Sequence record: LC739533.1
DNA length: 64,000 nucleotides
From: Escherichia phage phiWec179
Reading direction: 5' to 3' (one strand)
Made by a program: the position numbers and the translations under genes. The notes under the pieces were generated by a model that was not told the DNA's origin, ran no database searches, and saw nothing but the letters and a program-made list of their open reading frames with translations. Shown piece after piece: positions 35,757-51,798 of this stretch. Within the stretch, counting starts at the first letter, position 1, and the number at the start of each line of letters is the position of its first letter.

Positions 35757-36129
35757 TTTCTTCCCCTCCCCCTTTTCCAATAAGCGGCGAAGCCGCGATC
35801 ATCGACTTATAGACAACTTCGGCTGTTCGGGTTAGCCCCGTCCAGTCCTTCGCTGCCTCCAACATTTCTGGGGTAGGCTCTTTCGGGACCAAGACATACC
35901 CTTCTGGGACACACATCCCACTCTCTTTCTTTTCGGCTTCTTCCGACATAACTTGCCACACTCCATAGCTGCAATTCTCGAACAAACAATAGAGTTCAGA
36001 TCCTTCATCATCCACGACAATGAAACAGTTCTCATCTGCTACTTTGGCATTATAGATCCGACCTATGGTCAAATAGTCTCGGACATTAATAAACTTAGAG
36101 GCAAGAAACTTCACACGAATGTTTTTCAT
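35743..36129 (-). CDS. hypothetical protein
   Basis: 128-aa ORF. Confidence 0.55.
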   Translation of the reverse strand: MKNIRVKFLASKFINVRDYLTIGRIYNAKVADENCFIVVDDEGSELYCLFENCSYGVWQVMSEEAEKKESGMCVPEGYVLVPKEPTPEMLEAAKDWTGLTRTAEVVYKSMIAASPLIGKGGGEENEIK

Positions 36130-36365
36130 TTCTTAAACTCCGAAAAGCAACCCAAAGAGATGACCCCGCCATTATAGACGATAGCAAACTGGCACCCTGT
36201 CTTTGTGTCTGTGATGATGTAATCTAAAGCCCCAGTCATGCCAGTTTGAACAAAGCGATCCTTGGTTACAACTTTTGAGTCCGAGAAGCCGTTAACTTTC
36301 GGCACAGTGTCTGCCATAACAGTAGGAGTCACCAGAAACAATGCGATCAGTAATGCCTTTTTCAT
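36126..36365 (-). CDS. small secreted protein (signal peptide)
   Basis: MKKALLIALFLVTPTVMA N-terminus. Confidence 0.55.
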   Translation of the reverse strand: MKKALLIALFLVTPTVMADTVPKVNGFSDSKVVTKDRFVQTGMTGALDYIITDTKTGCQFAIVYNGGVISLGCFSEFKK

Positions 36366-36376
36366 AAACCCTCCAG

Positions 36377-36691
36377 TTAGCCTTGAAATGAATTGCGACG
36401 ACCAATACGGGCACAGCGATCACCTTCATAAGAGGTGAAATCCAGACTCACTCGGAAGCCAGGGTGGGTATCAGAGATCCCCACATTCTTCACCCACATC
36501 TCGAAACTGCCGATATGTAAGGTCATAATGTTTACATACCATTCCAGCGTCACTTCTGTGCCGTCTACGCCTGTGATGTAGAAATCACGAGCGAAATGGG
36601 TGTCGTGCTTCTGTTTCTGACGCTCATACTTAGCGATTGCACCTTTCTCAACAGCCGCTTTCAGGATCACTTCTAACTCTTCTATTTGCAT
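36377..36691 (-). CDS. hypothetical protein
   Basis: 104-aa ORF, begins MQIEE like the next ORF. Confidence 0.55.
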   Translation of the reverse strand: MQIEELEVILKAAVEKGAIAKYERQKQKHDTHFARDFYITGVDGTEVTLEWYVNIMTLHIGSFEMWVKNVGISDTHPGFRVSLDFTSYEGDRCARIGRRNSFQG

Positions 36692-36745
36692 GTTCTCTCT
36701 CCTTTATTGTTGATGCAACCACTATAATATGTCTGACACTCTCTG

Positions 36746-36961
36746 TCAAATGTTTTCTGCTTCCAGCACTACTCTTTGGATCTGCACGTCATCAATGTTT
36801 GCGAGACAATTCCCTAAAATAAGCCCTGCTCGGAAAGGGGCTTGGAACTTGGAGGAAGCCCCCACTCGAATAGAATACTCCACACCGCACATAACATAAT
36901 CTACACGGTACATATTCAAGCCCATGAACATGAGTTCTTCTTCCGACTCTTCGATTTGCAT
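36746..36961 (-). CDS. hypothetical protein
   Basis: 71-aa ORF. Confidence 0.5.
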   Translation of the reverse strand: MQIEESEEELMFMGLNMYRVDYVMCGVEYSIRVGASSKFQAPFRAGLILGNCLANIDDVQIQRVVLEAENI

Positions 36962-36973
36962 TTTTATCTCCTC

Positions 36974-37528
36974 TTAGTTCCAACTAATAATGATGTGTTT
37001 GATAACCCCAAAAACGCTATATTCCGCTGTTGTCAACGTTACATCTAAACCTTTTGCACGCAACATTGCGGCTACTACATTCACCCCTTCTTTCTGTTTA
37101 TCCATCTCTTCGTAAGAAGAAGGGCTGTTACACAAACCAAAACTCGAAGGTTCAAAATATTTTTGGAATTTTCCCTGTTCTGCATAATCTTCAATCTCCA
37201 GCAGAACACAGTCTACCATTTCAGTAAAATGGGAATTTGCTTGCAGTGCTTTACTACGTAGTTTATCACGTAAACTTCCCACAAACCCTTCCTGATCTTC
37301 TGTTTGCTCTACTTCACAGAAAGGATGAAGTTCAGCCCAGTCCCAAACGTCTCCCTCTAAAGCAAACGTTGTGTTGTAGTTGAAGAAGGTGCAACGTGGA
37401 AGTTCCCCGTTGAAAGAATCCTTCAGCAAAATGTATTTCTTACCATTTGCGTGGAAGAGTTCCCCTTTGATAACCTTGCCTTTCTGGATATCGCTGTCGG
37501 TGGAACGGGTGCAGATAAACTGTTTCAT
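36974..37528 (-). CDS. hypothetical protein (family-C C-terminal domain)
   Basis: C-terminal F.PSSFGLCNSP..VVAAMLRAKGLDV shared with ORF 43765..44067. Confidence 0.6.
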   Translation of the reverse strand: MKQFICTRSTDSDIQKGKVIKGELFHANGKKYILLKDSFNGELPRCTFFNYNTTFALEGDVWDWAELHPFCEVEQTEDQEGFVGSLRDKLRSKALQANSHFTEMVDCVLLEIEDYAEQGKFQKYFEPSSFGLCNSPSSYEEMDKQKEGVNVVAAMLRAKGLDVTLTTAEYSVFGVIKHIIISWN

Positions 37529-37582
37529 GATTTTCTCCTCTCTGTTTCGATGAGATGATTATGACAAAGACAGATCCTTCTG

Positions 37583-37909
37583 TCAACCAATTATTTCTTC
37601 TGCTATACGTTCTTTTACCCAGTTCACACGATCCACATTCAAATGACAACGGCTTCTTTCCGCTTCTAAGGTGTACTTTCCAAAATTACTGTTGAAAGGC
37701 AACACCATAACCAAATCTTTGCGGTAGAACTGCTCATGCATTTCATCCAGTACAGGTTCGTATCGTTCGCTTTCCCCCATATCGTAAAAATCATAGAGGT
37801 TCGAGCACAAACCTGTGCAACGGGTGAACGGTTCACCTTCAGGAGCACCAGCTTCCAACCATGCCAAATACGTGCGGTAAAATGTTAATAGTTCTTCGCT
37901 CATTTCCAC
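37583..37909 (-). CDS. family-A paralog
   Basis: LLTFYRTYLAWLEAGAP..GLCSNLYDF..LPFN..CHLNVDRVNWVKERIAEE. Confidence 0.65.
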   Translation of the reverse strand: MEMSEELLTFYRTYLAWLEAGAPEGEPFTRCTGLCSNLYDFYDMGESERYEPVLDEMHEQFYRKDLVMVLPFNSNFGKYTLEAERSRCHLNVDRVNWVKERIAEEIIG

Positions 37910-38112
37910 TCTCCTTCATGATAGTAAACCTCAAAAGAATAGTAAGTGAACATGCTCATTGTAACACCTCCCATTTCTGGATCAACGGAAGTGTTGTTAT
38001 ACATGTCAACTACTGCCTGACCCGCTGCTTTGGCATGTGCTGCCGAATCACAGGCACAAACATCTTTCTCCCACGGAAACTTGCCATCATACTTAAGACG
38101 GACAATCCACAT
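37900..38112 (-). CDS. hypothetical protein
   Basis: 70-aa ORF. Confidence 0.5.
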   Translation of the reverse strand: MWIVRLKYDGKFPWEKDVCACDSAAHAKAAGQAVVDMYNNTSVDPEMGGVTMSMFTYYSFEVYYHEGEWK

Positions 38113-38114
38113 GA

Positions 38115-38342
38115 TTATTCCTCCATCTTAAACCATTGAGGGAATACTTTACGGAAGACACGAGTTGCTTCCAAAAGGAATTCCAATTCTTTTTCCCGAT
38201 CTGCGTTCCAACCGTGTACTTTAACATTGATCGCCAGTGCATCAGCGCGCTGACTCAATGCTTGGCAAATCGGATCGCGCAACACTACCGCATCATAAAA
38301 CTGACAAACAGCTTCAAGTTCATACCAATTATAAGCAGCCAT
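38115..38342 (-). CDS. hypothetical protein
   Basis: 75-aa ORF. Confidence 0.5.
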   Translation of the reverse strand: MAAYNWYELEAVCQFYDAVVLRDPICQALSQRADALAINVKVHGWNADREKELEFLLEATRVFRKVFPQWFKMEE

Positions 38343-38668
38343 TATTCATTCTCCTCTGCAATACGATCTTTAACCCAATTAATCCTGTCCACGTTCAGGT
38401 GACAGGCATCTGCATCTGACTCTAAAACATATGCATCGTAGTTCTCATTGAAAGGGAGTTCTTGACTCAACCCTTTATAGTGGAACTGTGCGTGCATCTC
38501 ATCTGACAAGGTTATTATAATGAGATTGAAGCCATCCCTGTGCACATAATCGAACAAGTTGGCACACAAACCCACACTTGGCAGAAACGGTCTGCCATAA
38601 GGAGCACCATTTTCAATCCATGCCAGATACTTTTTGTAAAACTTCATCAACTCTTCACTTGTTTTCAT
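38342..38668 (-). CDS. family-A paralog
   Basis: LMKFYKKYLAWIENGAP..GLCANLFDY..LPFN..CHLNVDRINWVKDRIAEE. Confidence 0.65.
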   Translation of the reverse strand: MKTSEELMKFYKKYLAWIENGAPYGRPFLPSVGLCANLFDYVHRDGFNLIIITLSDEMHAQFHYKGLSQELPFNENYDAYVLESDADACHLNVDRINWVKDRIAEENE

Positions 38669-38906
38669 TTAGCCACCTCGTCAGTTTTTCTTGCTCTTTG
38701 TTTGCGCGTTCTAAGCTTCTAAACTTTAAACAAAGGGGAAGAGTATCCACACCCATGCACAAGCTTTTATCTAAGCTGTGCTCCCCAACCAACCAAAGAG
38801 AATATGTTTGAACATCTAACCCATAGTTTCTGTCTTTCCATAATCTCACCCCAAGAACATCAAAAGGCGCTTCCGCGACTAAAGAAAGAAACCGATCTTT
38901 ATTCAT
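38655..38906 (-). CDS. hypothetical protein
   Basis: 83-aa ORF. Confidence 0.5.
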   Translation of the reverse strand: MNKDRFLSLVAEAPFDVLGVRLWKDRNYGLDVQTYSLWLVGEHSLDKSLCMGVDTLPLCLKFRSLERANKEQEKLTRWLNENK

Positions 38907-38907
38907 G

Positions 38908-39252
38908 TTACACCACCTCTACCACATGAATGGACACATCGTCACGGTAGTATTTATCATCCCCGTAAATCTGGCCCAAACGTACACATGCGTCGTAGAT
39001 AGAAAGGGCTGGGATCTGATAAGTTTTAATACTGCCGTTATCTTTTGTATACCGGATCTCAAAAAGACGCATCACATCTTCAGCTACCACCTCAAAAGTG
39101 GCGCAGCCCATTCTCAACTCAATAACACAATCTGTTCCGTCATCACTATTGATCCAGTAGTAGTCCACATCCTCGTCTGTATTTGTCACAGGGTATTGCT
39201 TACCAACAGTGAAATATGGAACGGAAGATGATACGCACAAAAGTTTAGTCAT
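38908..39252 (-). CDS. hypothetical protein
   Basis: Start at ATG 39252 (RBS aaggagag). Confidence 0.5.
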   Translation of the reverse strand: MTKLLCVSSSVPYFTVGKQYPVTNTDEDVDYYWINSDDGTDCVIELRMGCATFEVVAEDVMRLFEIRYTKDNGSIKTYQIPALSIYDACVRLGQIYGDDKYYRDDVSIHVVEVV

Positions 39253-39312
39253 TTTTCTCTCCTTATTGTCTTGATGTGGTAAGCATACCATACAGAAATC
39301 AGGTGTCAAGCT

Positions 39313-39513
39313 TTATCGACACAGATAGTTGTAACGATCTGCTTTATCCTCTGCTTCAGCAAAGTCAGCAATCAAGGAAGTTTTGAGTTCTTCCAACTCT
39401 TTCACCCAAGAGTCGTAATCGCTCTGTGTTTCCCCGATGGTTTGGAGAAAACAATCGTCGTAGCCAATAGACATGGCTAACTCGATAATACGTTCCAGTT
39501 TTTCTTCCATCAT
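39313..39513 (-). CDS. hypothetical protein
   Basis: 66-aa ORF. Confidence 0.5.
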   Translation of the reverse strand: MMEEKLERIIELAMSIGYDDCFLQTIGETQSDYDSWVKELEELKTSLIADFAEAEDKADRYNYLCR

Positions 39514-40034
39514 TTCTCTCCTTCTACAGATTCTTGTTTAATATGATAATAGGCACCCCGTGCCAGATACACTTCGTGTTCTACATCGCTGATCGGGAAC
39601 CCATCAGGATTGGAAAGTCCTTGCTCAATAGTGAGAATAAGGCTTCGCAAACTAAGAGCCAGCAATTCTATACGTGCTTCAAGCACACGGTTGTGTTTAC
39701 GAGAAATATCGTAGTTGCACTGTGCTTCCTTCCATTGTTCGGTGGCATGTTCCGCTACACGCAGAAGAACAGCTTTCTCCTGTTCAGCTTTAGATACTTC
39801 CCAGTTCACAGAAGTGTCAGCAGGAACAAGAATGAAAGGTTCTTCTTTCTCTCCCACAACAGACCAACGCCCCAGCTTACTATCTTTCAATGTATCCCAC
39901 GCATAGTCCCCATCGTCACAAGTAAATCGGAATACCTCTCCTTCCTTGGCCTCCCATTCAGCCTCGTAAGTTTTACCAGTGGTAACAAAGGAATGTTTAG
40001 AGAGACTACAGTAAACAGCGAATACCTTGCTCAT
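39510..40034 (-). CDS. hypothetical protein
   Basis: 174-aa ORF. Confidence 0.6.
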   Translation of the reverse strand: MSKVFAVYCSLSKHSFVTTGKTYEAEWEAKEGEVFRFTCDDGDYAWDTLKDSKLGRWSVVGEKEEPFILVPADTSVNWEVSKAEQEKAVLLRVAEHATEQWKEAQCNYDISRKHNRVLEARIELLALSLRSLILTIEQGLSNPDGFPISDVEHEVYLARGAYYHIKQESVEGEK

Positions 40035-40276
40035 TCTACCTCCTCATTAGAAATTACAGACAAAGAGAGCGTAGCAAAACCTACAGAGATTGCTCGCCCC
40101 TCATCAATAGCTTCGTTAATCATATAACTTACCAAACTGGTAGTAGCAAAATCACCATCTTCAGTAAGGCGAAACACTTCTTGATCCGGTTCGGTGATGA
40201 AAGGCAGAAGGTATTCTTTCTTTGTATCCAGGAAACGTACTACATGGAATAAACGGGTTTTATTTCCGTAAGACAT
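40031..40276 (-). CDS. hypothetical protein
   Basis: Start at ATG 40276 (RBS aaaggagag). Confidence 0.5.
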   Translation of the reverse strand: MSYGNKTRLFHVVRFLDTKKEYLLPFITEPDQEVFRLTEDGDFATTSLVSYMINEAIDEGRAISVGFATLSLSVISNEEVE

Positions 40277-40541
40277 TCTTTCTCTCCTTTGCTTTTGGAT
40301 ACTCCCAACCCTCTGGGAGATCTTCGTTAAGCATCCACTCAAAAGGCCAGCGACAATAGCTATGCCACTTTCCATCCAAGTAGAGGCAATCTTCATCTAC
40401 TGGTCCACAAGGATTGATAACTACAACACACCCTTTTGCTCGCCAATACTGAACTATTTCGGGGTAAAAACAAGAAACATCAGTCCACTCCCAAATACGT
40501 TCATCATTCAAACGATACGCTGCTGGTAATGTTTCTTTCAT
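40260..40541 (-). CDS. hypothetical protein
   Basis: 93-aa ORF. Confidence 0.5.
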   Translation of the reverse strand: MKETLPAAYRLNDERIWEWTDVSCFYPEIVQYWRAKGCVVVINPCGPVDEDCLYLDGKWHSYCRWPFEWMLNEDLPEGWEYPKAKERKNVLRK

Positions 40542-40545
40542 CCGA

Positions 40546-40992
40546 TCAAACCTCTGTCAAAGAGAAACGCCAATCTTTACTACTACCCACACCAAGGAAG
40601 TAATAGTCTCCGGTACTAACGGAAATACGCCAAGCGGAAATCCAGTCAGGAATCTCTGGCTTATGGCTGTAGCCATAGCGATCACCACTTGAATCTGTTG
40701 CAATATAATTAACAAATTCAGGCACATCTAAAGTTTCACCTTGATACTCTACACGCTTGAAGCCATCTTCCACTTGTTCCTCCCCTTCTACCAGAAGGGC
40801 AAGAAGCTGAATGTGCGGACAAGTGAAATCTTGCCCTGGATAACGTGAACGGATATCTGTAAGCAGAGCGATCACCGCGTCTGCCAGATTTTGGTAATCT
40901 TCATACTTCACGAACGTCCCTTTTGTAGGATCATCCGAACACAAAAGCCAAGCGTCGTTCGGATTCACTCCATAATGTTTAACTTTAGACAT
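40546..40992 (-). CDS. hypothetical protein
   Basis: 148-aa ORF. Confidence 0.6.
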   Translation of the reverse strand: MSKVKHYGVNPNDAWLLCSDDPTKGTFVKYEDYQNLADAVIALLTDIRSRYPGQDFTCPHIQLLALLVEGEEQVEDGFKRVEYQGETLDVPEFVNYIATDSSGDRYGYSHKPEIPDWISAWRISVSTGDYYFLGVGSSKDWRFSLTEV

Positions 40993-41072
40993 ACACCCTC
41001 CTATTCGTACATTAAGAAGCCCAAAATAATAATCAGGGCAGCGAAAATAATAATCTCTATCATATCACATTC

Positions 41073-41285
41073 TCACTTATTCATAGAAGCAGGAAGAATC
41101 GAATGACACTTCCTGCACACTTTCACTTTAACAAGATTATCACTCCCTTCTGCGTAAATCAAAGCTTCTTTCAACTTATTCCCACACGAACAATACTCTG
41201 TTAGGTCCAGGGGAACATCAAAAAGCCCGTAATCGCTCTCATATTGTTTCTTACACAACGAAACCACTCTTGTAAAGTAAGACAT
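41073..41285 (-). CDS. small zinc-ribbon protein
   Basis: CSCGNK..CRKCHS. Confidence 0.5.
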   Translation of the reverse strand: MSYFTRVVSLCKKQYESDYGLFDVPLDLTEYCSCGNKLKEALIYAEGSDNLVKVKVCRKCHSILPASMNK

Positions 41286-41288
41286 TTC

Positions 41289-41510
41289 TTATTCCTCGAT
41301 CACTTCTACATCCCAAGAGAAGAATACATAGTCACAACCTTCCCAAACATCATCCTCCAGGATCTCACAACCTTCCACTTTAGCCATCTCTTCTTGGGAA
41401 ACGAAGAATGTTTGCAGATCATCGCTGAAAAGGTGTGCTTCAACAACAAAAGGAAGCTGAACGTTCTCGAAACCTACATAGCCTGTAACATCAATAATCT
41501 TAATTTTCAT
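41289..41510 (-). CDS. hypothetical protein
   Basis: 73-aa ORF. Confidence 0.5.
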   Translation of the reverse strand: MKIKIIDVTGYVGFENVQLPFVVEAHLFSDDLQTFFVSQEEMAKVEGCEILEDDVWEGCDYVFFSWDVEVIEE

Positions 41511-41701
41511 GATGGTTCTCCTTTATAAAGTAAACCTCTTAGTTCGCATTCTGCCACCAATAGACGGTTGGCTTGATTGTCCATAGACACGTCTATCTCC
41601 ACACTCCAAGCATTAATATACACTTCGTTGATCTTTGCGTCAAGCATTTGTGCAACTAAAGCTACGGCTCCAGCATATTCAAGTTTGATCTCTATAATCA
41701 T
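41507..41701 (-). CDS. hypothetical protein
   Basis: 64-aa ORF. Confidence 0.5.
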   Translation of the reverse strand: MIIEIKLEYAGAVALVAQMLDAKINEVYINAWSVEIDVSMDNQANRLLVAECELRGLLYKGEPS

Positions 41702-41985
41702 TTAAGATGATCCCTTACCCATTGGATACGGACAGCATTGAGATGAGAACCATCTTCCTTGTATTCTTTCGCGTAATCATCCCAATCCTTATTGAACGGG
41801 AGTTCTGGGTCCAACCCCGCAGCTTCAAACTGTTTTGACATTTCATACAGCAAATCATCATCACAATAACCGAAGAAATAGAGATTAGTACATAAACCCC
41901 ATTCACGGCGGAAAGGATTACCGTCTGGCGCTCCCGCGTCCACCCAATCTGCGTAAGCTTGATAGAACTCTCGTAATGTTTTCAT
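41698..41985 (-). CDS. family-A paralog
   Basis: LREFYQAYADWVDAGAP..GLCTNLYFF..LPFN..SHLNAVRIQWVRDHL; start at ATG 41985. Confidence 0.6.
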   Translation of the reverse strand: MKTLREFYQAYADWVDAGAPDGNPFRREWGLCTNLYFFGYCDDDLLYEMSKQFEAAGLDPELPFNKDWDDYAKEYKEDGSHLNAVRIQWVRDHLK

Positions 41986-42140
41986 AACCACCCCTTATCT
42001 TGATAACCTTTAGAAAACCCTTCTTCCCACTCTTGAAACTGTTCAGGATGTTTATTGGGATCGTAAGGATTGTGGCGGCAAAACATGCCGAATTTATAAC
42101 CCTGTGCGTAGCCTTTATCGAATGCGTTCTTACTCTCCAT
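41982..42140 (-). CDS. small protein (52 aa)
   Basis: Not in track; RBS gaggagag; ATGA overlap with next gene. Confidence 0.4.
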   Translation of the reverse strand: MESKNAFDKGYAQGYKFGMFCRHNPYDPNKHPEQFQEWEEGFSKGYQDKGWL

Positions 42141-42152
42141 TGTTCTCTCCTC

Positions 42153-42425
42153 TTATTCAACGTTCCAGAAAACACCCCGTTTATCTGTAATGTCTATACG
42201 ATACTCCTCCCACATCTTAGTTACAAGAGGTCTTTTCACATAACCGTGAAAATAAACTTCAGAATGCACCCCGTAAGCTGTGTAATTGTCAACAGTCCCT
42301 TCTACCTTGAAGATCACCATGTCTCCACCTAAAAATCTTTCAAAAACCAAGGTGAAACAGTCGAACTTAACAACGTCTCCCTCGAAGAGGGAGATATCTT
42401 TCACCTTACAGAAATGTCCGATCAT
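42153..42425 (-). CDS. hypothetical protein
   Basis: 90-aa ORF. Confidence 0.5.
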   Translation of the reverse strand: MIGHFCKVKDISLFEGDVVKFDCFTLVFERFLGGDMVIFKVEGTVDNYTAYGVHSEVYFHGYVKRPLVTKMWEEYRIDITDKRGVFWNVE

Positions 42426-42434
42426 TTTCTCTCC

Positions 42435-42626
42435 TTAATACACATCACCTACAAACCAGATTTCTGGATCGCCATACTGATCCTTCTCGTAAGATTTGTA
42501 GACACTACAGCAATATTTCAAAACACCGTCCACAAGGATTGTTGATCTTTCTTCTGGAATCTCTGTGATCTCCCCTTTGCGGGTTTCGAAGATGGTATCA
42601 CCCTTTTCAATTAGTCGGATTTTCAT
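42435..42626 (-). CDS. hypothetical protein
   Basis: 63-aa ORF. Confidence 0.5.
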   Translation of the reverse strand: MKIRLIEKGDTIFETRKGEITEIPEERSTILVDGVLKYCCSVYKSYEKDQYGDPEIWFVGDVY

Positions 42627-42627
42627 A

Positions 42628-42825
42628 TCATACCTCCCTCAATGCGATTAGTGCGTTCACCAGATTATCAACACCTTGAGCATCCAGGGCAATAACATCA
42701 AAGTTAAACCCTGTATCAGTTGGGACTTTACGTGTTATGGTGTAATAATCCTCTGCATGACGTTCAACATATGCGTATGGGTAACTGGTGTTCGGATCAT
42801 GTTTTACGCGAATAGATGTTTTCAT
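42628..42825 (-). CDS. hypothetical protein
   Basis: 65-aa ORF. Confidence 0.5.
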   Translation of the reverse strand: MKTSIRVKHDPNTSYPYAYVERHAEDYYTITRKVPTDTGFNFDVIALDAQGVDNLVNALIALREV

Positions 42826-43295
42826 GTTTTGTTCTCCTCTTTAGTTGCAACACGGAACTTATTAGCTTCTCTCACCTGGAACATGAAGTCTTTCTTCTTC
42901 ATAATCCCGATGGACATTTCATCCAGTTCTTCTGGATGGATCTGGAGATTACGGCGATCGGACAGGAACCAAGATTTCTCCCACCAGAAGCGTTGATCCT
43001 CCTCCTTGTGGTGCTTGTATTCCTCTTTTTCTTTTTCTGTGAGGATCTTGAAGCGATTCTTTCCTTCCCAACGCATTGCTGTGTTAAAAGGAATACCGTT
43101 ATCCCCATTATACACTGCGGAAGTAGGAAGGCAATAGCCAGTTTCTGCGTCGATCATTTGGTAGTGAAATTCACATTCCAGTTCAACGTACTCTAAATCC
43201 CCATAAAAATCACTGATCAAGAAAGCAATGTAAGTTTCACCATGTTCGGGAACAAATTCTTGCTTTGTCAACATCTCCAGTTTCAAACCTGCCAT
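42822..43295 (-). CDS. hypothetical protein
   Basis: 157-aa ORF. Confidence 0.6.
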   Translation of the reverse strand: MAGLKLEMLTKQEFVPEHGETYIAFLISDFYGDLEYVELECEFHYQMIDAETGYCLPTSAVYNGDNGIPFNTAMRWEGKNRFKILTEKEKEEYKHHKEEDQRFWWEKSWFLSDRRNLQIHPEELDEMSIGIMKKKDFMFQVREANKFRVATKEENKT

Positions 43296-43307
43296 TGCTT
43301 TCTCCTT

Positions 43308-43541: not shown

Positions 43542-43552
43542 ACGATCTCCTC

Positions 43553-44067: not shown

Positions 44068-44132
44068 TTCATTTCTCCTCTCGTCTGTGTATGCAAAGAT
44101 TATCTACCAACGTGATCCTTATGTCAAGCTAT

Positions 44133-44645
44133 TTATTCAAAATAAACTTTAACTTGTGCCGTGCTGTAGCGATTGTAAATCTCGACCACGGCTTTAGCAT
44201 TATCTTCTTTATAGGATTCTGCCAGATCTTCCGCATCTCGGATATTTCCGGCAACACCTACGAGAACAAGATCCACCATTACAAGATATTTTTTATCTTC
44301 TGGACTCTCTTGAGAAGGCTCTTGCACTGGTTCTTCCTTTGGTTCTGGTGGCAAACCAACCTCTGCCTCAACATAAGAGTCAAACCAAGTGATATCGTTA
44401 AAATGCTTTAACTCGTGTTTGGACAGCAGCATACCACAATCAACGAAAGCACCTGCATCAGCTTCAAAGACATGCCCTTCAAATGTTTGGAACTTAACCA
44501 CATCCCCTTTTTCTGTTGTCTCCAACACCAGGAAGTGTTTTGGCCCCAGCAGATCTGAAATCTTTCGGTTCAGATTGACAGCTTCACGGAACGCATTGTA
44601 CTCTTTTGTATTTTTGAATTTATAAGAATGCCCTTGAATAAACAT
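44133..44645 (-). CDS. family-B paralog
   Basis: 170 aa; C-terminal KKYLVMVDLVLVGV..VEIYNRYSTAQV parallels the adjacent ORF. Confidence 0.6.
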   Translation of the reverse strand: MFIQGHSYKFKNTKEYNAFREAVNLNRKISDLLGPKHFLVLETTEKGDVVKFQTFEGHVFEADAGAFVDCGMLLSKHELKHFNDITWFDSYVEAEVGLPPEPKEEPVQEPSQESPEDKKYLVMVDLVLVGVAGNIRDAEDLAESYKEDNAKAVVEIYNRYSTAQVKVYFE

Positions 44646-44657
44646 AGTAGTCTCCTC

Positions 44658-45176
44658 TTAGTCAAATATCACATTACTTACGAGTTTCGCTGTGCTACGC
44701 AGAGTATAAATCTCCACAAGCTTCCCTGGACTCTCTTTCTTCGCTTTCGTGGCTCTTTCTTGTGCCTCTGAAAAAGATGATACAGTATGCACTACTACGT
44801 AGTCAACAATAACTGCAAACTTTTTAGGCACAATATCGGCATCAGGACGATCGTCGTGCGCAGAAACATCCTTACCTGGCTGTGGTGCCAGCGGCGGCAA
44901 GCCTGTCATTAACAGTGCACCTCCATCAAAGAAATATCCGATTTCATCGTGTGCAATAAGGAAGCGATCCATTTGAGCATCACCTACTCCCTGATCCCAG
45001 AACACTTTCCTATCTTCTACGAAGATGATAAGGGACAGGACATTCCCATGAACATCCGTGTTAACTGGTTGGAACCAGTGATCCCCAATCGCTTCAGCCA
45101 ATTGTTTAGAGATTGATTGAAACAACTCTTGGTACGTGCCTTGTCTGAAACGATATACATTATTTGTTTTAAACAT
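44658..45176 (-). CDS. family-B paralog
   Basis: 172 aa; C-terminal KKFAVIVDYVVVHT..VEIYTLRSTAKL. Confidence 0.6.
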   Translation of the reverse strand: MFKTNNVYRFRQGTYQELFQSISKQLAEAIGDHWFQPVNTDVHGNVLSLIIFVEDRKVFWDQGVGDAQMDRFLIAHDEIGYFFDGGALLMTGLPPLAPQPGKDVSAHDDRPDADIVPKKFAVIVDYVVVHTVSSFSEAQERATKAKKESPGKLVEIYTLRSTAKLVSNVIFD

Positions 45177-45198
45177 TAGTGTCTCCTCTTGTATTAAA

Positions 45199-45657
45199 TT
45201 ATTGTTCTACTTCACGCAGCCACGCTAAAGCCTCTTCTGGGGATTTATCGAAGTCGTTGAGCAGTTCCTGCTCCAACTCCTCTTTCATTTCATTCAGCAC
45301 TTGTAGTTGACGTGCCTTTTTCCACAAGGCTACACGATAATCAACACCTTGTGGTGCTTCTTCTGCCACTTTTACATTACCTGTCGGGCAGCGAGGAAGA
45401 TAGTCTTCAATATCTTCCAAGGCACGGCGATAATTGGGGTCCATGTAGTTCACACGAACACGATTACATTCTAACAAAGTGGCACGGAACACTTCATAAC
45501 GTGTTTCGGATAGAATGTGTTTCACACAGACAGCACCAGTATCTTCTGAAATTACGCTATACACTTCCAGTAGGCTGGAGTTTCTCTTGACATAATCTGT
45601 AACGCATTGCACATATGCTCCCAATATTGTGGAAGCTCTCGCTGGTTTTTCGCTCAT
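45199..45657 (-). CDS. hypothetical protein
   Basis: 152-aa ORF. Confidence 0.6.
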   Translation of the reverse strand: MSEKPARASTILGAYVQCVTDYVKRNSSLLEVYSVISEDTGAVCVKHILSETRYEVFRATLLECNRVRVNYMDPNYRRALEDIEDYLPRCPTGNVKVAEEAPQGVDYRVALWKKARQLQVLNEMKEELEQELLNDFDKSPEEALAWLREVEQ

Positions 45658-45893
45658 TTTCTACCTCCCCATAATGCCACCATTTTATTAAAGATGGAAG
45701 CGCGTCGTGCACGAGATGCTAACATACGATTGGCTTCTTCGTAGCCATAGAACAAACGATCTGTCAATACCAACGCCAGTGTCTTCTCTTGCAGAGACTG
45801 GCAATTATGTTCAGGACGACAGTCGTGCCCTGCATCGAAGTACAGATTGTTCAGATAGTTGTTTGCTCTCTCATTCTGCTTTGCAGTGATCAC
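45654..45893 (-). CDS. hypothetical protein
   Basis: 79-aa ORF. Confidence 0.5.
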   Translation of the reverse strand: MITAKQNERANNYLNNLYFDAGHDCRPEHNCQSLQEKTLALVLTDRLFYGYEEANRMLASRARRASIFNKMVALWGGRK

Positions 45894-45902
45894 GATCCCT
45901 CC

Positions 45903-46133
45903 TTAATGAACAATTTCATATTCGTGAGGAAGGAAAACATAATCTTCCCCTTCACCTGCATCTTCTTCATCCCAGAAGAAACCTGGTATCTCAATCATCT
46001 TCGAAAAGCGCACATGCGCCAACCCACTATACCCTATCTGTGCATTCAGCACAACGGGTAACTCTGCACCAATCAGACCTACATACCCGCAAGCGGTTTC
46101 AATACGAATTTTCATACGTTTTATGTTATGCAT
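45903..46133 (-). CDS. hypothetical protein
   Basis: 76-aa ORF. Confidence 0.5.
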   Translation of the reverse strand: MHNIKRMKIRIETACGYVGLIGAELPVVLNAQIGYSGLAHVRFSKMIEIPGFFWDEEDAGEGEDYVFLPHEYEIVH

Positions 46134-46335
46134 CTTTCATATTCTCCACGAAGTGACGAGCAACAGGATTCCCGTAGAAATATTCATTGATGAAATCGAT
46201 CACACAGGTTTCACTGCCTGTCACAACGGACGGTGCGAAGTTTCGGAACTGCACGAGTACACGACTTGCGTTAGCAAGGGCGTTCACACGATCAGTATTA
46301 GCTAAATACAAGGATACAGTTTTCATATTCGACAT
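46126..46335 (-). CDS. hypothetical protein
   Basis: 69-aa ORF. Confidence 0.5.
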   Translation of the reverse strand: MSNMKTVSLYLANTDRVNALANASRVLVQFRNFAPSVVTGSETCVIDFINEYFYGNPVARHFVENMKDA

Positions 46336-46406
46336 TTCAATCTCCTCATTGGCTATCTGTTATGCGCGGTATTGCGCCTCTCATGCAAACAAGTATACAG
46401 ACATTT

Positions 46407-46775
46407 TTATTCAATGCAAGCATTATTTGCATCTTCGATGCGATCTTTCACCCATTGAAGACGTAACGTGTTGGTATGACACGCCAAGTCTATACACTCT
46501 GAAAGGTAATCCATGCAATCTGCATTGAACGGAAGATTGTAGTCCAGTTTTGCACATGTAAATTGTTTCCTCATTTCGTATTTCAAACTATCCAACAAAC
46601 GATCACGCCATCTTTTATCTTCTTCTCTAATTACCTCACCAACAAAATCATCTACATAATCTACCAGACAACCACACAAGCCACTCGTTGTGCGATTCAT
46701 TGCCGGATGGTTGGCAATCCATGCTTTATAGAATCGTATTAATGTTGCACTGCTCAACGGAATGTTACTTTTCAT
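46407..46775 (-). CDS. family-A paralog (NIPLSS subgroup)
   Basis: MKSNIPLSSATLIRFYKAWIANH..GLCGCL..LPFN..CHTNTLRLQWVKDRI; start at ATG 46775 (RBS gaaggagg). Confidence 0.6.
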   Translation of the reverse strand: MKSNIPLSSATLIRFYKAWIANHPAMNRTTSGLCGCLVDYVDDFVGEVIREEDKRWRDRLLDSLKYEMRKQFTCAKLDYNLPFNADCMDYLSECIDLACHTNTLRLQWVKDRIEDANNACIE

Positions 46776-47130
46776 TATTGCCTCCTTCACAATCCTGGAT
46801 ACGATCTTCTACCCATTGCACACGCAGTCGGTTGAGATGACATTTTCTGTTTTCACATTCTTCCTCGTAGTCGAAGAAGTTGGTATTGAAAGGTGTGGTT
46901 TTAGACAACCCTGCATACATAAACTGTACCAGCATTTCATCAGCTAAAGCTTCACGCATCTCCCAAAACTGATCCACATCGGCACCATGTATCGGACACA
47001 ATACGTCCCATGCAAAATTGCCTAAACATACGCACAAGCCATTCGCTGTGTTCACCAACTCACTACGGTGAGCCATCCAATTCTTATAGAACATCAGAAG
47101 AGTATCACTACTCAAGGGAATATTTTTCAT
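46765..47130 (-). CDS. family-A paralog (NIPLSS subgroup)
   Basis: MKNIPLSSDTLLMFYKNWMAH..GLCVCL..TPFN..CHLNRLRVQWVEDRI. Confidence 0.6.
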   Translation of the reverse strand: MKNIPLSSDTLLMFYKNWMAHRSELVNTANGLCVCLGNFAWDVLCPIHGADVDQFWEMREALADEMLVQFMYAGLSKTTPFNTNFFDYEEECENRKCHLNRLRVQWVEDRIQDCEGGNNEK

Positions 47131-47131
47131 A

Positions 47132-47512
47132 TCAGGCTCCTTTACGATTATGGAAACAATCTTTCACTCGCTCTTGCACCCACTCTACACGAAGCTTGTT
47201 TTCATGCGCTCTGTTGTGGTTATGCTCTTGCACATAGTCTTCGTAGTTCACATTAAAGGGAACACTGACAGACAATCCTGCACAACGAAATTGTTTCTTC
47301 ATTTCTTTTAATGTCGCATCACTTAGGGCACAAAGCTGATTTGCCTGTTCCTCACTGAAGTTACTGTCCCACATCTCATCCCAGATAAAACTATCCAAGC
47401 ATACACATAACCCATGCCTTGTGCGCTCTTTAGTATGATGATCAGCAAGCCAACTTTCATAGAAAGCTAACAACACCGGACTACTCAACGGAACATTTTT
47501 ACTCTCTTGCAT
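47132..47512 (-). CDS. family-A paralog (NIPLSS subgroup)
   Basis: MQESKNVPLSSPVLLAFYESWLADH..GLCVCL..VPFN..AHENKLRVEWVQERV; start at ATG 47512 (RBS gagaggag). Confidence 0.6.
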   Translation of the reverse strand: MQESKNVPLSSPVLLAFYESWLADHHTKERTRHGLCVCLDSFIWDEMWDSNFSEEQANQLCALSDATLKEMKKQFRCAGLSVSVPFNVNYEDYVQEHNHNRAHENKLRVEWVQERVKDCFHNRKGA

Positions 47513-47870
47513 GATAATCTCCTCTCTTGGTTTCATGACAAACATCCTAATTCTCAACGAGGAACATCTTACGATCAATCCTCGGCAATTACAATTCATT
47601 TATCATCGCTTTTCCCTATCAATTATTCTATATATACCTGTTATTTTTGACACCCCCTTTGGTCAAATATTAATCGGCAAAATATCTGGGGGTACTCTAT
47701 AAAATGATGCCCCCTGTTCCTGCAATTTATCGAGGAGAATATCATTCGACTATCATCGGCAAAGAGACAGAAAAGCCTTTGGTAGCAAGGATTTATGGCG
47801 AGTACGTCAGGACTGCTTAACGCGAATTTTTCGGCCCCTCCACTTCTGCGAGCCGGAATCCTCAAATATC

Positions 47871-47902
47871 AATGAGAATAATTATCATTATCATTCGTAT
47901 TC
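47871..47902. repeat. Fur-box-like ATTATC hexamer repeat; left copy of about 31-bp imperfect direct repeat
   Basis: aatgagaataattatcattatcattcgtattc; 28/32 identical to 62407-62438; core matches 19-bp Fur-box consensus as recalled at about 16/19. Confidence 0.5.
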
Positions 47903-48289
47903 AATAACTTAGGCGATCTTTTCCCCTGCTATAAGGTCGGGCCTAACTTAACCATCACTTTTCAAACAATCCTTTATCAATCAACTACTTAACAACCTAA
48001 ACATATGATTACTACGGTGTAAAGGTGCCGCCCATAACAGACTACCTATAAAATAGATGAGAATGATTATTATTCAGACAATTCTTACAACAAATCGACC
48101 AACAAATCAAGAATTTTCTTATTTTTATTCACGTTTAAGAGAACGTGCTCAACATTCCGCTACGCGTAACGGTTCGCCCCCAAAAGATTAGCCTTTGCTT
48201 TCCTGTATATTTATACACTATGTGCAAGGTGTCGCTACACGCTCGCCTTGCCCCGCATAATCCTTCACTGTGCTAATGATTTCATAGTG

Positions 48290-48445
48290 CAACAATAACA
48301 CTTATTATTATATTACGCTTAATTATTCTTACATACAATGCTAATAATAAGCCAGCGTAATTAGTGTAAGCGTAATACGCTTGCAATAATTGCAAGCTAC
48401 ATAATCACAAGAAATAACCATCACCGATGGTTATGATTGTGGGGG
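48290..48445. repeat. cluster of perfect palindromes in ORF-free region
   Basis: aagcgtaatacgctt and cttgcaataattgcaag adjacent; ataaccatcaccgatggttat; later atgataatggttatcat at about 48791. Confidence 0.5.
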
Positions 48446-48539
48446 TGTAGTTGGCTTATTATTAGCTCGCTACGTGTCCGGCGTAGCGTGCTAATGATGA
48501 CTCTATGAATGATTCATTTTGCAATTATTACAGTCTTCA

Positions 48540-48770
48540 CTATTTCGGCAATAGTTATTATTTTAATGGTTTCATTTGTTATCGTTAGTTAGTTGGTTGT
48601 TTTGTCGTGTTATCGTTATCTTGCTTAGTATTCATCATGGTTTGATTGTTTGTCGTTATCAATCATCTTTCTATTATTCCTTTGATTATGATTAGTTTGC
48701 TTATTGTTTTAAGTCGTTAGTTGGTTAGTTGTTGCGAACTGTTATCAACATTATAGTTATGCACTTATAT
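48540..48770. repeat. AT-rich iteron region (GTTATCGTT / TTAGTTGGTT repeats), candidate origin
   Basis: Repeated gttatcgtt, ttagttggtt, TTATCAACA (DnaA-box-like, one mismatch to TTATCCACA); no ORF of 60 aa or more in any frame across 47.6-49.05 kb. Confidence 0.4.
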
Positions 48771-49011
48771 TGCATAGATACGCAAGGGTAGATGATAATG
48801 GTTATCATTGCACTGGAAAGGAAGAAAACAGCCTTTTTCGGTTGTTTGTTGTTGGTTGTTGATCGATTTTAACCGCTCTAAATAGCTCTCTAATAGCCTG
48901 TTGCCCTGGGGTGTATGGTTATTCGTTTAATGGTTGATTAGCTCGATACCGCGATCTATTCAGTTTTGTTCTGTGTCGGTTTTTCATAGGCGGAATCTAT
49001 CAACATTGTTC

Positions 49012-49042
49012 GGGCAAAAAGAAAGGGCGCTTTGTGCGCCCT
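49012..49042 (-). terminator. rho-independent terminator closing the leftward small-gene array
   Basis: AGGGCGC-tttgt-GCGCCCT hairpin with T-tract on minus strand, just downstream of ORF 49057..49476. Confidence 0.5.
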
Positions 49043-49056
49043 TGTTTTGTTGTCAA

Positions 49057-49476
49057 TTATAACGCTTCATAGATTGAGTAGATCCGGTTTGCCAGGTCAT
49101 TACGAAAGCGGAATTTTTCATCACGTTTAATCATCAGATCCTTAAAACCGCATTCTTTCAAGGCTTCATTAACTTTACTGCGGCATACTTTCATATTGTC
49201 CTGCGCGTCACCAATAAACTTATTGCTATGATGCATTGTTTTGATCTCTTCCTCCAGGACCAGGGCAACTACACGGATCGGATCAAGCTGATACGCGGTA
49301 ACATCCATGCGGCATTGTAAACGGCTTTTAACATCGTTTACCGGATACACTGCAACCTCTTCCCCGTCAACGTTCACAATAACCAGCTTACCATCAATTT
49401 CGAAGCCTTTCGCGGCGCTACCGTGGCAAAAAGCGTTATCGAAGGAGTAAGCCGGATTATTTGATTTAATGTTCAT
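49057..49476 (-). CDS. hypothetical protein
   Basis: 139-aa ORF; E. coli-like GC-richer codon usage. Confidence 0.6.
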   Translation of the reverse strand: MNIKSNNPAYSFDNAFCHGSAAKGFEIDGKLVIVNVDGEEVAVYPVNDVKSRLQCRMDVTAYQLDPIRVVALVLEEEIKTMHHSNKFIGDAQDNMKVCRSKVNEALKECGFKDLMIKRDEKFRFRNDLANRIYSIYEAL

Positions 49477-49521
49477 GTTGTTGTCCTTTGTTTCGTTTCG
49501 TTGTTTGCTGCCAGTGAGTTA

Positions 49522-49550
49522 AATATAATATAACGCCGATCCCCTGTCAA
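49522..49550 (-). promoter_or_regulatory. sigma70-type promoter (minus strand) TTGACA-17-TATATT
   Basis: Minus-strand TTGACA at 49550-49545 with AT-rich -10. Confidence 0.45.
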
Positions 49551-49616
49551 TAGGCGATAGCGCATTATTTACATTTCTTTACGTTAAAGGGCGCTTAGTG
49601 CGCCCCTTGTACAATC

Positions 49617-49985
49617 TTACTTTGTGCTGTTGTAAACGTTATCGCGTTCAACCATCAGGGCAAGGCGGATCAGTTGATCAGTTGTATCGCGTAAGCTGTC
49701 AGGCCATGTTTTATTGTTCCAGCTATCTAAATTTGATTGAATATAGGTTTCAATGGCTTGATCCATATTGTCGAACAAGTTTTCCTCCAAGCTCTCGGCT
49801 GTTTCACACTGGAAAGCATCAGCGACACTATTAATCAATAAGCAAGCCAGTAAATCAGCGTTGCGCCAATTTTTACGGATAGTTTCATCTGTCAGATAAC
49901 CAACGAGATTAACCTTTGCGCCAGTGGTGGACGTTGCGATCACTTCTTGCGCTTTTTCAACTGCTTTAATTGCTGATTTGCTCAT
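49617..49985 (-). CDS. hypothetical protein
   Basis: 122-aa ORF. Confidence 0.55.
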   Translation of the reverse strand: MSKSAIKAVEKAQEVIATSTTGAKVNLVGYLTDETIRKNWRNADLLACLLINSVADAFQCETAESLEENLFDNMDQAIETYIQSNLDSWNNKTWPDSLRDTTDQLIRLALMVERDNVYNSTK

Positions 49986-50063
49986 CTTCTTTTCCTCTTT
50001 GTGGGCTTGCTGTATTGCTTGCCCTACGCAATAACTATAAGTTAACAGGGTGTATAAAGCAAG

Positions 50064-50297
50064 CTATTTTTTATAAAATTTTTCTGCTGTGATATTCTTC
50101 CCTGTAGGCTTAACCGCTTGCAAGATCTTATCATGTGCCGAACGTCCAAAGGAATAAGATCCGTAAACGGTAAACCAATAATCCCCGTTCGGTTGAACGG
50201 TTACGGCGGCGTATGGTGTGCCTTTTTCATTATCACCAATAAAGTGTGAAACATTGCCGTTAACGTTCGGTTTAGTGCTTTTAATTTGTTCGATCAT
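50064..50297 (-). CDS. hypothetical protein
   Basis: 77-aa ORF preceded by cassette. Confidence 0.55.
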   Translation of the reverse strand: MIEQIKSTKPNVNGNVSHFIGDNEKGTPYAAVTVQPNGDYWFTVYGSYSFGRSAHDKILQAVKPTGKNITAEKFYKK

Positions 50298-50315
50298 GAT
50301 GTGACTCCTAAATCA

Positions 50316-50374
50316 GGCGGGAAACATTCCCGCCCTACGTGATAAATAATAATATAAGGGTGATCCGGTGTCAA
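50316..50374 (-). promoter_or_regulatory. promoter-leader cassette (TTGACA-17-TATTAT then GGCGGGAA-acat-TTCCCGCC leader hairpin)
   Basis: Read on minus strand; hairpin lies between -10 and RBS. Confidence 0.5.
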
Positions 50375-50548
50375 TAGGTAGAATTGTAAAGATTTGATAG
50401 TTTATCTCTTTGATGTTTTGTTGTTTGATAGGTGTTAGCTATCAATATATAGCGGGGTCGTCCGGTGATTACCTCCCCCGTTGCCAGTGCCGCCCGTTCA
50501 GTAAGCATAACAAAAAACAGGACAAAAACAAGCCCTGTTTTGTAAAGA

Positions 50549-50752
50549 TTAGATGATCTGCATATCCTCCACGATAATTTCTAATTTCCAAACAAGATGA
50601 TCTAAGCTCCCTGATAAAAATGATTCCGATACATAACCGCCATCGGACACCGTAGCAAGGATCTCGCCATTTGCTTGCTCTTTGATTTGAACATCCAGGC
50701 GGTTAGCCTTTGCTTTGTTCAGGACGGCGATCAAGCGGTTAGCTGTAGTCAT
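50549..50752 (-). CDS. hypothetical protein
   Basis: 67-aa ORF. Confidence 0.5.
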   Translation of the reverse strand: MTTANRLIAVLNKAKANRLDVQIKEQANGEILATVSDGGYVSESFLSGSLDHLVWKLEIIVEDMQII

Positions 50753-50774
50753 GGTGTTTTCCTTCCAGTCGTGA

Positions 50775-50830
50775 GCGGCACCATTGCCGCCCTACGTGAT
50801 ACATCTTACACTATCAGATACATTGTGCAA
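50775..50830 (-). promoter_or_regulatory. promoter-leader cassette (TTGCAC-16-TAAGAT then GCGGC-accatt-GCCGC hairpin)
   Basis: Conserved gtgagcggcaccattgccgccctacgtgatacatcttac block. Confidence 0.5.
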
Positions 50831-50836
50831 GCTATT

Positions 50837-51028
50837 TTAGATCTCGTCACCTATATAATCAGATCTGTTTTTCTCTGTCATACGCTTAAGCAATTCTTGC
50901 ATATGGCTTATAGCTTGCAATGTGTCTTCTTCCAGGCTTGAATCGAGATAATCAGGATCATTCTTTACCTTGCTATGGTTGTGATACCGCAACGCTGCTA
51001 ATACCTTTCTAACTTGTTCTGCATTCAT
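50837..51028 (-). CDS. hypothetical protein
   Basis: 63-aa ORF. Confidence 0.5.
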   Translation of the reverse strand: MNAEQVRKVLAALRYHNHSKVKNDPDYLDSSLEEDTLQAISHMQELLKRMTEKNRSDYIGDEI

Positions 51029-51171
51029 TTTTATTACTCCTTAAAACCAGGTGCCAACCGTTTCCAATAAGTCACTGACTACCAGAACAACATTGATTAG
51101 CACATATTTAATCAGGAAGGGGATTAGCGCCAGCGTCGCTACTATGATCCCCATTATGATGATTATTTTTC

Positions 51172-51462
51172 TCATGGTTGGCGGTTTACGTGGGCTTTAC
51201 CGTTTACGGTCATCGGTATGGCCTCAAGGTCTGGATCTTCCTTAAGGTCGCGTGCAAGCTCACCGCACCGGATACCCTCGAATCCGTGGTATTCTGTTTC
51301 CCCGTCCTTAAAAGTTTTAGCGGCAAGGCATAGGCGATAATTAACACCGATCCGGTTTACTGCGTTGATATCGGTTAACGTGATCGATTCCGGCAAATCG
51401 TTAGCCATTACAGGCGCGTTAATACCAACAACCAGGGCAACTACTGCGATCATCTTTTTCAT
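51172..51462 (-). CDS. small secreted protein (signal peptide)
   Basis: MKKMIAVVALVVGINAPVMA N-terminus. Confidence 0.55.
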   Translation of the reverse strand: MKKMIAVVALVVGINAPVMANDLPESITLTDINAVNRIGVNYRLCLAAKTFKDGETEYHGFEGIRCGELARDLKEDPDLEAIPMTVNGKAHVNRQP

Positions 51463-51517
51463 GTGTCTATCCTCTTCCTATTGCGTTTAATGGGGGCGTT
51501 GCCGCCCCGCTTATGGT

Positions 51518-51754: not shown

Positions 51755-51798
51755 AATCTTTTCCTTTCTGATGTGGGGCGTTGCCGCCCCTTTGTTGA

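Follow-up and report, generated by a model that had tools for sequence, protein, structure and literature searches.

Two small proteins with Sec-type export signals in the putative early region of Escherichia phage phiWec179 as candidates for envelope-directed functions

Genes A and B and their export signals

The 64,000-nucleotide stretch of Escherichia phage phiWec179 analyzed here (LC739533.1; hereafter, the window) carries two small genes, A and B, whose products begin with classical signal peptides and may act on phage entry from the periplasm or the inner membrane. An initial annotation of the window had pointed to these two open-reading frames (ORFs) as a pair of exported proteins among cytoplasmic-type early genes, and had suggested that they could mediate superinfection exclusion or receptor masking, or inhibit enzymes of the host envelope. 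The coordinates it gave for both ORFs are exact and both lie on the minus strand (Table 1), and the N-terminal residues it quoted, together with their Sec/signal peptidase I (SPase-I) anatomy, were verified.

Escherichia phages phiWec181 and phiWec186 share 98.9% identity with the window over 17.5 kb spanning both genes and are classified as Phapecoctavirus (Stephanstirmvirinae), to which the window also belongs; phAPEC8 and many relatives show patchy identity of 87-94%. Genes A and B are part of a minus-strand block that extends from about 27 kb to 64 kb, as delineated by GC skew and ORF density, and all genes of the region are annotated as 'hypothetical protein' in phiWec181, including the coding sequences (CDSs) of A and B. 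Near-consensus sigma70 promoters, matching at least 11/12 positions, occur 12 times on the coding strand of this block and once on the opposite strand, against 0.45 in shuffled sequences. The promoter ahead of A is one of these 12, whereas the one ahead of B is a 10/12 match, and at the place equivalent to the latter (52146..52173) phAPEC8 carries an annotated 'host dependent promoter'. Promoters of the sigma70 type support transcription by host RNA polymerase, and hence early expression. The two ORFs, their ribosome-binding sites, the overlapping stop and start codons (that of A overlaps the ATG of the next gene), the corresponding phiWec181 CDSs and the evidence of purifying selection make it almost certain that A and B are real early genes. 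The ratio of nonsynonymous to synonymous substitution rates (dN/dS) is 0.06-0.24 for A and 0.14-0.29 for B, with dS in the latter of up to 0.74.

Signal peptides were scored by rule-based analysis of their n-, h- and c-regions, using one lenient score and one strict rule. Protein A starts with MKKALLIALFLVTPTVMA followed by DTVPK, and protein B with MKKMIAVVALVVGINAPVMA followed by NDLPES, the rule-based predictions of cleavage falling between A18 and D19 and between A20 and N21, respectively. Both proteins begin with MKK and lack a twin-arginine (RR) motif. Their h-regions are uncharged over about 10-12 residues, reading ALLIALFLV(TPTV) in A and MIAVVALVVGI in B, and their c-regions place a proline at -5 in A and at -4 in B, leading into V-M-A (V at -3, A at -1) ahead of D in the former and of N in the latter. 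Neither protein has a lipobox or a cysteine at +1, and the mature parts start acidic or neutral. The lenient score puts A first and B second among the 555 ORFs of the window, and the strict rule flags 3/466 ORFs against 0.81 expected from shuffled sequences, the third flag being a false positive caused by the Rossmann GAG motif of a Sir2-like protein (26118-26918, plus strand). Taken alone, the signal pattern is therefore only modestly above chance.

The decisive support for export comes from the conservation of the signals across homologues. The strict rule is passed by every B homologue (41/41), and 92/94 sequences of the family to which A belongs (hereafter, family A) have an export signal, the two exceptions looking truncated or mis-started. 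Family A combines freely diverged signal sequences with an invariant core and two invariant cysteines. Its signals comprise about 69 of the SPase-I type and 23 lipoboxes, including two 'LLMG/C' cases that our script had filed under SPase-I. An aspartate occupies the +2 position in 16/23 of the lipoprotein members. Under the enterobacterial +2 sorting rule, Asp+2 entails retention in the inner membrane, which points to the inner rather than the outer membrane as their site of action. For B, NCBIfam returned a single weak match, which falls in the signal segment of periplasmic MerP. The periplasmic export put forward in the initial annotation is thus upheld by canonical signals that are kept across divergent homologues, and on these grounds A and B are very probably exported by Sec.

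The same segments could conceivably act as uncleaved signal anchors, making A and B bitopic inner-membrane rather than soluble periplasmic proteins; cleavage is a rule-based prediction, and several small proteins encoded nearby are clearly membrane-anchored. We regard this reading as quite improbable, given that the uncharged cores are too short for a membrane span and end in a proline followed by V-M-A, that divergent homologues still obey the -3/-1 rule, and that lipoboxes take the place of the segment in part of family A, an exchange that is sensible only for a removable targeting signal.

The portrayal of the surrounding genes as cytoplasmic-type and early is supported indirectly as regards their timing, in view of the sigma70 promoter motifs, but holds only in part as regards their type, since about ten small hydrophobic or membrane ORFs share the strand of A and B, including one that is coupled to B. 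The latter, a peptide of 44 amino acids (aa), was overlooked in the initial annotation, and the early region holds more envelope-directed proteins than had been assumed.

Table 1 Positions of genes A and B and of associated features in the window
Feature	Position	Strand	Basis or description
Gene A	36126..36365	-	ATG-start ORF, 79-aa precursor; exported DUF6440-like family
Signal peptide of A, residues 1-18, MKKALLIALFLVTPTVMA	36312..36365	-	Rule-based analysis; 92/94 family members keep an export signal
Mature A, 61 aa, isoelectric point about 8	36129..36311	-	Alignment and AlphaFold2 model
Shine-Dalgarno GGAGG(G) of A	36369..36374	-	Sequence inspection
Sigma70-like promoter TTGACA-17-TATAGT, 11/12	36721..36749	-	Head of the island holding A
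Replacement island with A and about five other small genes	35031..36947	-	blastn of phAPEC8 against the window
Gene B	51172..51462	-	ATG-start ORF, 96-aa precursor; phrog_9845 over full length, E = 5e-57
Signal peptide of B, residues 1-20, MKKMIAVVALVVGINAPVMA	51403..51462	-	41/41 homologues pass the strict rule
Mature B, 76 aa, isoelectric point 5.0	51175..51402	-	Alignment and AlphaFold2 model
Shine-Dalgarno GGAAGAGGA of B	51470..51478	-	Sequence inspection
44-aa membrane peptide, phrog_16005	51041..51175	-	Very hydrophobic ORF; ATG overlaps the stop codon of B (ATGA)
Sigma70-like promoter TTGACA-16-TAATAT, 10/12, extended -10 TG	52146..52173	-	Candidate start of the B unit
Terminator-like hairpin with T-run	50514..50541	-	Closes the B transcription unit in the window

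Families, folds and transcription units

Although initially presented as a pair, A and B are unrelated, and their folds, distributions and transcription units all differ. Sequence and profile comparisons identify family A as a phage-only, exported branch at the edge of the Pfam family DUF6440 (PF20037). The likeness lies in the conserved core, over which the PF20037 model is matched by 24/26 family members (best E = 6.3e-6), with a precomputed PF20037 call on about 25/93 family clusters; protein A of the window itself scores 14.9 bits (E = 0.024), below the gathering threshold of 26.5 bits. What sets the branch apart from DUF6440 is its restriction to phages, its N-terminal export signal and its conserved cysteine pair. 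A search of the literature found nothing on the function of DUF6440.

Close homologues of A form seven clusters at 75% identity or above, and only about 7 phage records carry A at 95% identity or above. Relatives detected by tblastn at 39-51% identity reside in the jumbo phages pEt-SU, OBP, Yubaba/Sureiya, N1M2, Survivor, SXP01, AH04 and Kc263, and a further relative was found by the same means in a Klebsiella member of Stephanstirmvirinae. The family hence spans a few phapecoctaviruses and jumbo phages of Edwardsiella, Serratia, Klebsiella, Pseudomonas, Pantoea, Shewanella, Erwinia and Kosakonia. Profile searching of 1.84 billion representative proteins returned 16 family-A clusters at 50% identity, and a broader profile returned 93 clusters at 90% identity, all of them 74-96 aa in length and encoded on contigs no longer than about 285 kb, a size range expected of phage genomes. 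In 185,579 bacterial and archaeal genomes we found neither family A nor B.

The AlphaFold2 model of mature A consists of a flexible linker of about 18 residues followed by a four-stranded beta-meander at residues 37-73, with a predicted local distance difference test (pLDDT) score of 86-95 in the core; the beta-meander domain of the family comprises some 43 residues. Alignment reveals seven invariant residues (T52, D53, G57, C58, Q59, G72 and C73) within a conserved core of the form TD..K(T/S)GCQ(Y/F) … LGCF.E(Y/F)KK. The cysteine pair is kept in 94/94 family members, and in the model C58 and C73 would face each other across the last hairpin.

Two names attached to homologues of A do not withstand scrutiny. 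The label 'RcsF', which appears in a note on the homologue from Kosakonia phage Kc263, is contradicted by Pfam, where 0/26 family members match RcsF at E <= 1, and the Kc263 protein has no match in NCBIfam. The name 'LpoB', given by JGI to homologue P0057, corresponds to a TIGR02722 match of 15.1 bits against a cut-off of 110.55; it is spurious because the match, confined to residues 3-43, covers just the lipoprotein signal and linker and not the globular domain.

The homologue of A in Escherichia phage ESCO13 (L017:1501-1839) is 112 aa long and contains an in-frame tandem duplication of 99 nt of the core domain (TGALDYIITDTKTGCQFAIVYNGGVIPLGCFSE, twice), which either reflects a genuine doubling of the domain or arose as an artefact of assembly.

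Gene A sits in a replacement island of about 1.9 kb. Homology to phAPEC8 ends at 36948 and restarts at 35030, and at this position phAPEC8 holds three unrelated genes, gp0046-0048. When the window is compared with the jumbo-phage loci, A itself is the sole shared gene, and no conserved partners of A were found across phage lineages. With only A shared between lineages, the gene would appear to move as a single-gene cassette, and its status as a mobile accessory gene is strongly supported.

Gene B has a markedly different distribution. It is carried by 172 phage records of Phapecoctavirus and Vequintavirus (rV5, LL12, V18 and BASEL isolates) at 77-98% identity, and is a core gene of rV5/phAPEC8-like phages across two subfamilies; a scan of viral contigs added three further loci only. 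Mature B is modeled by AlphaFold2 as a beta-beta-beta-alpha-beta fold, with pLDDT of about 90 over residues 21-90, and this model has no informative structural match. At least 90% of its 41 homologues retain C45 and C66. Sequence searches of PDB chains with A and B returned nothing significant, and the profile of B, compared with all PDB chains at E <= 10, retrieved Evasin alone, at E of about 0.1, although the structures of T4 Spackle described in PMC7677548 are expected to be among those chains. Searches of Pfam, PHROGs, NCBIfam and PADLOC with A, B, the 44-aa peptide and ten neighbors likewise returned no functional family.

The transcription unit of B would run, in the window, through a 99-aa gene, a 78-aa gene, B and the membrane peptide, and the 44-aa peptide starts between -4 and +2 nt from B in 7/7 loci (the window and six others, from two subfamilies). 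At least 129 phage records contain the peptide, several of which leave it unannotated, and its most conserved part is the C-terminal VLVVSDLL..(V/I)GT(W/L)F. The equivalent unit of phAPEC8 consists of the host-dependent promoter, gp0012, gp0013, B (gp0014), the peptide (gp0015) and a terminator. The position of this terminator directly after the peptide indicates that the conserved core is the B-peptide pair and that the 63-aa gene coming next in the window is optional; a conserved trio of B, peptide and 63-aa gene was rejected on the same grounds. Taken together, B and the 44-aa peptide probably constitute one functional module.

Two further observations pertain to this unit. In Escherichia phage V18 (L011:1787-1978) a deletion has created a hybrid of the 44-aa peptide, represented by its N-terminal two-thirds, and the following 63-aa protein, represented by its C-terminus, and B has lost a little of its own C-terminal end. 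In the window, an identical GC-rich hairpin of 16 nt occurs twice upstream of B, at 51493-51508 and 51775-51790, with the coding-strand sequence GGGGCG-GCAA-CGCCCC, whose loop is of the GNRA type. The copies are found some 10 nt past the stop codons of the two small genes that precede B, one behind each, and are devoid of a coding-strand T-run; chance would yield 0.01 exact copies against the two observed. Instead of terminating transcription, the hairpin may serve RNA stability or processing.

Candidate roles at the periplasmic face of the inner membrane

The explanation that we favor overall, with modest confidence, is that A and B are early, Sec-exported proteins that block phage entry in the periplasm or at the inner membrane. 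Host RNA polymerase would transcribe both genes early from their sigma70-type promoters, Sec would export the products, and signal peptidase I would cut after A18 in A and after A20 in B, with one disulfide probably stabilizing each protein in the periplasm. Members of family A would operate as free periplasmic proteins or as lipoproteins, mostly Asp+2, presenting their domain on a flexible linker. B would be produced in translational coupling with the 44-aa inner-membrane peptide, a coupling that suggests similar amounts of both and, probably, joint action at the periplasmic face of the inner membrane. Either protein could then block a post-adsorption step of an incoming phage, be it cell-wall penetration or channel formation and DNA translocation, which would amount to superinfection exclusion of the kind exerted jointly by T4 Spackle and Imm.

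T4 Spackle (gp61.3) is an early, Sec-exported periplasmic protein with a 97-aa precursor, a 22-aa signal, a 75-aa mature chain and one disulfide, which folds as an alpha-helical bundle and acts as an inhibitor of the tail lysozyme (PMC7677548). Its small inner-membrane counterpart, T4 Imm, is reported to bind the channel formed by the tape measure and to block genome translocation (bioRxiv 10.64898/2026.03.06.709160). The architecture of B is closely comparable to that of Spackle (96-aa precursor, 20-aa signal, 76-aa mature chain and two conserved cysteines), and T4 combines Spackle with the membrane protein Imm much as B is coupled to its membrane peptide. In contrast, B has no sequence similarity to Spackle at E <= 10 in the PDB sequence search, its modeled beta-beta-beta-alpha-beta fold differs from a helical bundle, and its translational coupling to the peptide has no parallel in T4, where the sp and imm genes are not adjacent. 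B belongs to neither the Spackle nor the Imm family, and by analogy the B module may work like both. An exclusion-type function of the B module is accordingly put forward as a tentative proposal, and an exclusion-type function of A as a slightly more doubtful one. A bolder form of the hypothesis would make B and the 44-aa peptide a new two-component exclusion or entry-block module, with a fold unrelated to Spackle, Imm, Llp and Sim, and family A a horizontally traded periplasmic effector acting at the inner-membrane face against competing phages; we consider it speculative.

Receptor masking was among the roles initially suggested; in the form known from T5 Llp and the Cor proteins, which act on FhuA from the periplasmic face of the outer membrane, it is now disfavored. 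T5 Llp is a small early lipoprotein of the outer membrane that plugs its protein receptor, FhuA (PMC9586334; bioRxiv 10.64898/2026.03.26.714494). It resembles A and B in being small, early, phage-encoded and envelope-targeted, and some relatives in family A are lipoproteins too. A and B themselves are not lipoproteins, however, the lipoprotein relatives of A carry mostly Asp+2 and would be sorted to the inner membrane, and no fold match was seen. Moreover, the receptors used by this phage group are glycans, namely the enterobacterial common antigen (ECA) and the outer core of lipopolysaccharide (LPS), through its glucose, rather than an outer-membrane protein that could be plugged (PMC8594841). 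Receptor masking is hence very unlikely.

In a different role, A and B would remodel the host envelope for the benefit of the phage, rather than exclude other phages, by inhibiting or activating a periplasmic or inner-membrane enzyme, or by dampening an envelope stress response. Candidate targets would include peptidoglycan synthesis or hydrolysis, a protease, or the assembly of LPS or ECA, and interference with ECA/LPS assembly from the periplasm is conceivable in a phage group that depends on these glycans (PMC8594841). This possibility, which we hold to be real although not probable, rests on the same evidence for export as the entry block. The strict conservation of B as a core gene in two subfamilies suits a housekeeping role at least as well as exclusion, and the flexible linker and small binding domain of A are a layout typical of binders and inhibitors.

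The accessory character of A, with its hypervariable island, patchy distribution and transfer between unrelated virulent phages, would also fit counter-defense, that is, the neutralization by A and B of envelope-acting immunity of the host or of prophages, such as the exclusion proteins of prophages or barriers that stop DNA entry in the periplasm. Host defenses that act in the periplasm do exist, as illustrated by the HXS system (PMC13128918). Against this stand the lack of homology to known anti-defense proteins, with PADLOC silent, and the status of B as a core rather than an accessory gene. A protein made after entry, furthermore, cannot rescue the entry of its own genome and would help only against envelope systems that act later. 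Counter-defense is on these grounds unlikely.

Control of lysis timing has to be weighed as well. T4 RI, a protein of about 97 aa, acts in the periplasm, has an uncleaved signal-arrest-release (SAR) domain and binds the holin, and A and B could be antiholin-like factors of this kind, sensing superinfection in the periplasm and delaying lysis. The likeness to RI lies in size and in the compartment of action; the 44-aa peptide could, in addition, contact a holin inside the membrane, and small membrane-associated lysis modulators are emerging in other phages (PMC11657625). The signals of A and B nevertheless look cleavable, with an AxA site and a short, strongly hydrophobic core, and not SAR-like, and neither protein shows sequence similarity to solved RI structures at E <= 10. 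Neither gene is near a lysis cassette, their neighbors have no assigned function, and the sigma70 promoters suggest immediate-early expression. An antiholin-like role thus seems improbable.

Several considerations weigh against the entry block that we favor. The exclusion role is drawn by analogy, and other envelope-directed roles fit the facts equally well. No functional work on A, B or their relatives was found in the literature, nor was a transcriptome for this phage group, so the designation of the genes as early rests on promoter motifs. The genomic context provides no functional pointer, the operon neighbors all being without assigned function and PADLOC silent. Finally, the disulfides of A and B are deduced from conservation and strand register rather than from coordinates, and the homologue of B in phage ESCO25 has a tyrosine in place of C45.

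Small exported early proteins of phages are already known, as exemplified by Spackle, Llp, Sim and RI, and A and B are uncharacterized additions to this group. The modeled folds of A and B match no characterized example, and yet nothing in the two proteins is categorically new or would surprise a specialist. What the analysis contributes is an exported DUF6440-like family that switches between Sec and lipoprotein signals, the pairing of B with its peptide, the placement of A in a replacement island and the correction of two misleading names. The myoviruses related to rV5 and phAPEC8 rank among the coliphages isolated most often and are components of phage cocktails, and their large early regions are nearly all annotated as 'hypothetical'. 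The envelope-directed early candidates outlined here, a core pair (B and the 44-aa peptide) and a mobile cassette (A), bear on how these phages may deal with competitors or remodel the envelope. If the B module does exclude relatives, related phages applied together would interfere with one another, with consequences for cocktail design, and the module would provide a structurally new example among the few understood exclusion mechanisms of virulent phages. Should A and B turn out to be ordinary accessory factors, annotation would still gain from the elimination of the spurious 'RcsF' and 'LpoB' names, the addition of the 44-aa gene and the identification of the DUF6440-adjacent branch.

Other features of the window and of related records

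Additional small hydrophobic or membrane proteins are encoded in the minus-strand block at 30695-30865, 31147-31347, 33616-33945, 34971-35198, 55296-55496 and 59891-60124. The product of 34971-35198 is a bitopic protein of 75 aa with two cysteines in its C-terminal part, and Klebsiella phage phi1_175008 encodes a homologue of this protein in the vicinity of its A gene. The longest ORF at 40031-40396 on the minus strand opens with a lipobox-like motif (…IVAGLLSG/C), which was also considered and rejected: the phiWec181 annotation places the start further downstream, at the equivalent of 40276, so that the motif falls in an N-terminal extension, the ORF lacks a clean positive n-region, and its product is probably not a real lipoprotein. 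The Sir2-like protein flagged by the strict rule is a homologue of phAPEC8_0072, and its gene lies just ahead of the switch in transcription strand at about 27 kb.

Among the records retrieved, those labeled as Campylobacter phage (15-17), Pseudomonas phage PsgM04F and Acinetobacter phage vB_AbaM_ABPW7 are about 90-95% identical to phapecoctaviruses or vequintaviruses of E. coli. Their host labels look doubtful, pointing to contaminant or mis-assigned hosts.

A stretch of about 1.2 kb at 47866-49056 is free of ORFs of at least 50 aa on both strands, is unannotated in phiWec181 and returned no tRNA or Rfam match. Within it, GC content falls to 30% and the sign of the GC skew flips locally at 48500-48800, and degenerate direct repeats of about 30 nt ending in GTTATCGTTA are found at 48558-48658, together with several inverted repeats of 14-18 nt. 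An ORF-free stretch is likewise mentioned in the rV5 paper, and the one in the window may be an origin-like or regulatory region.

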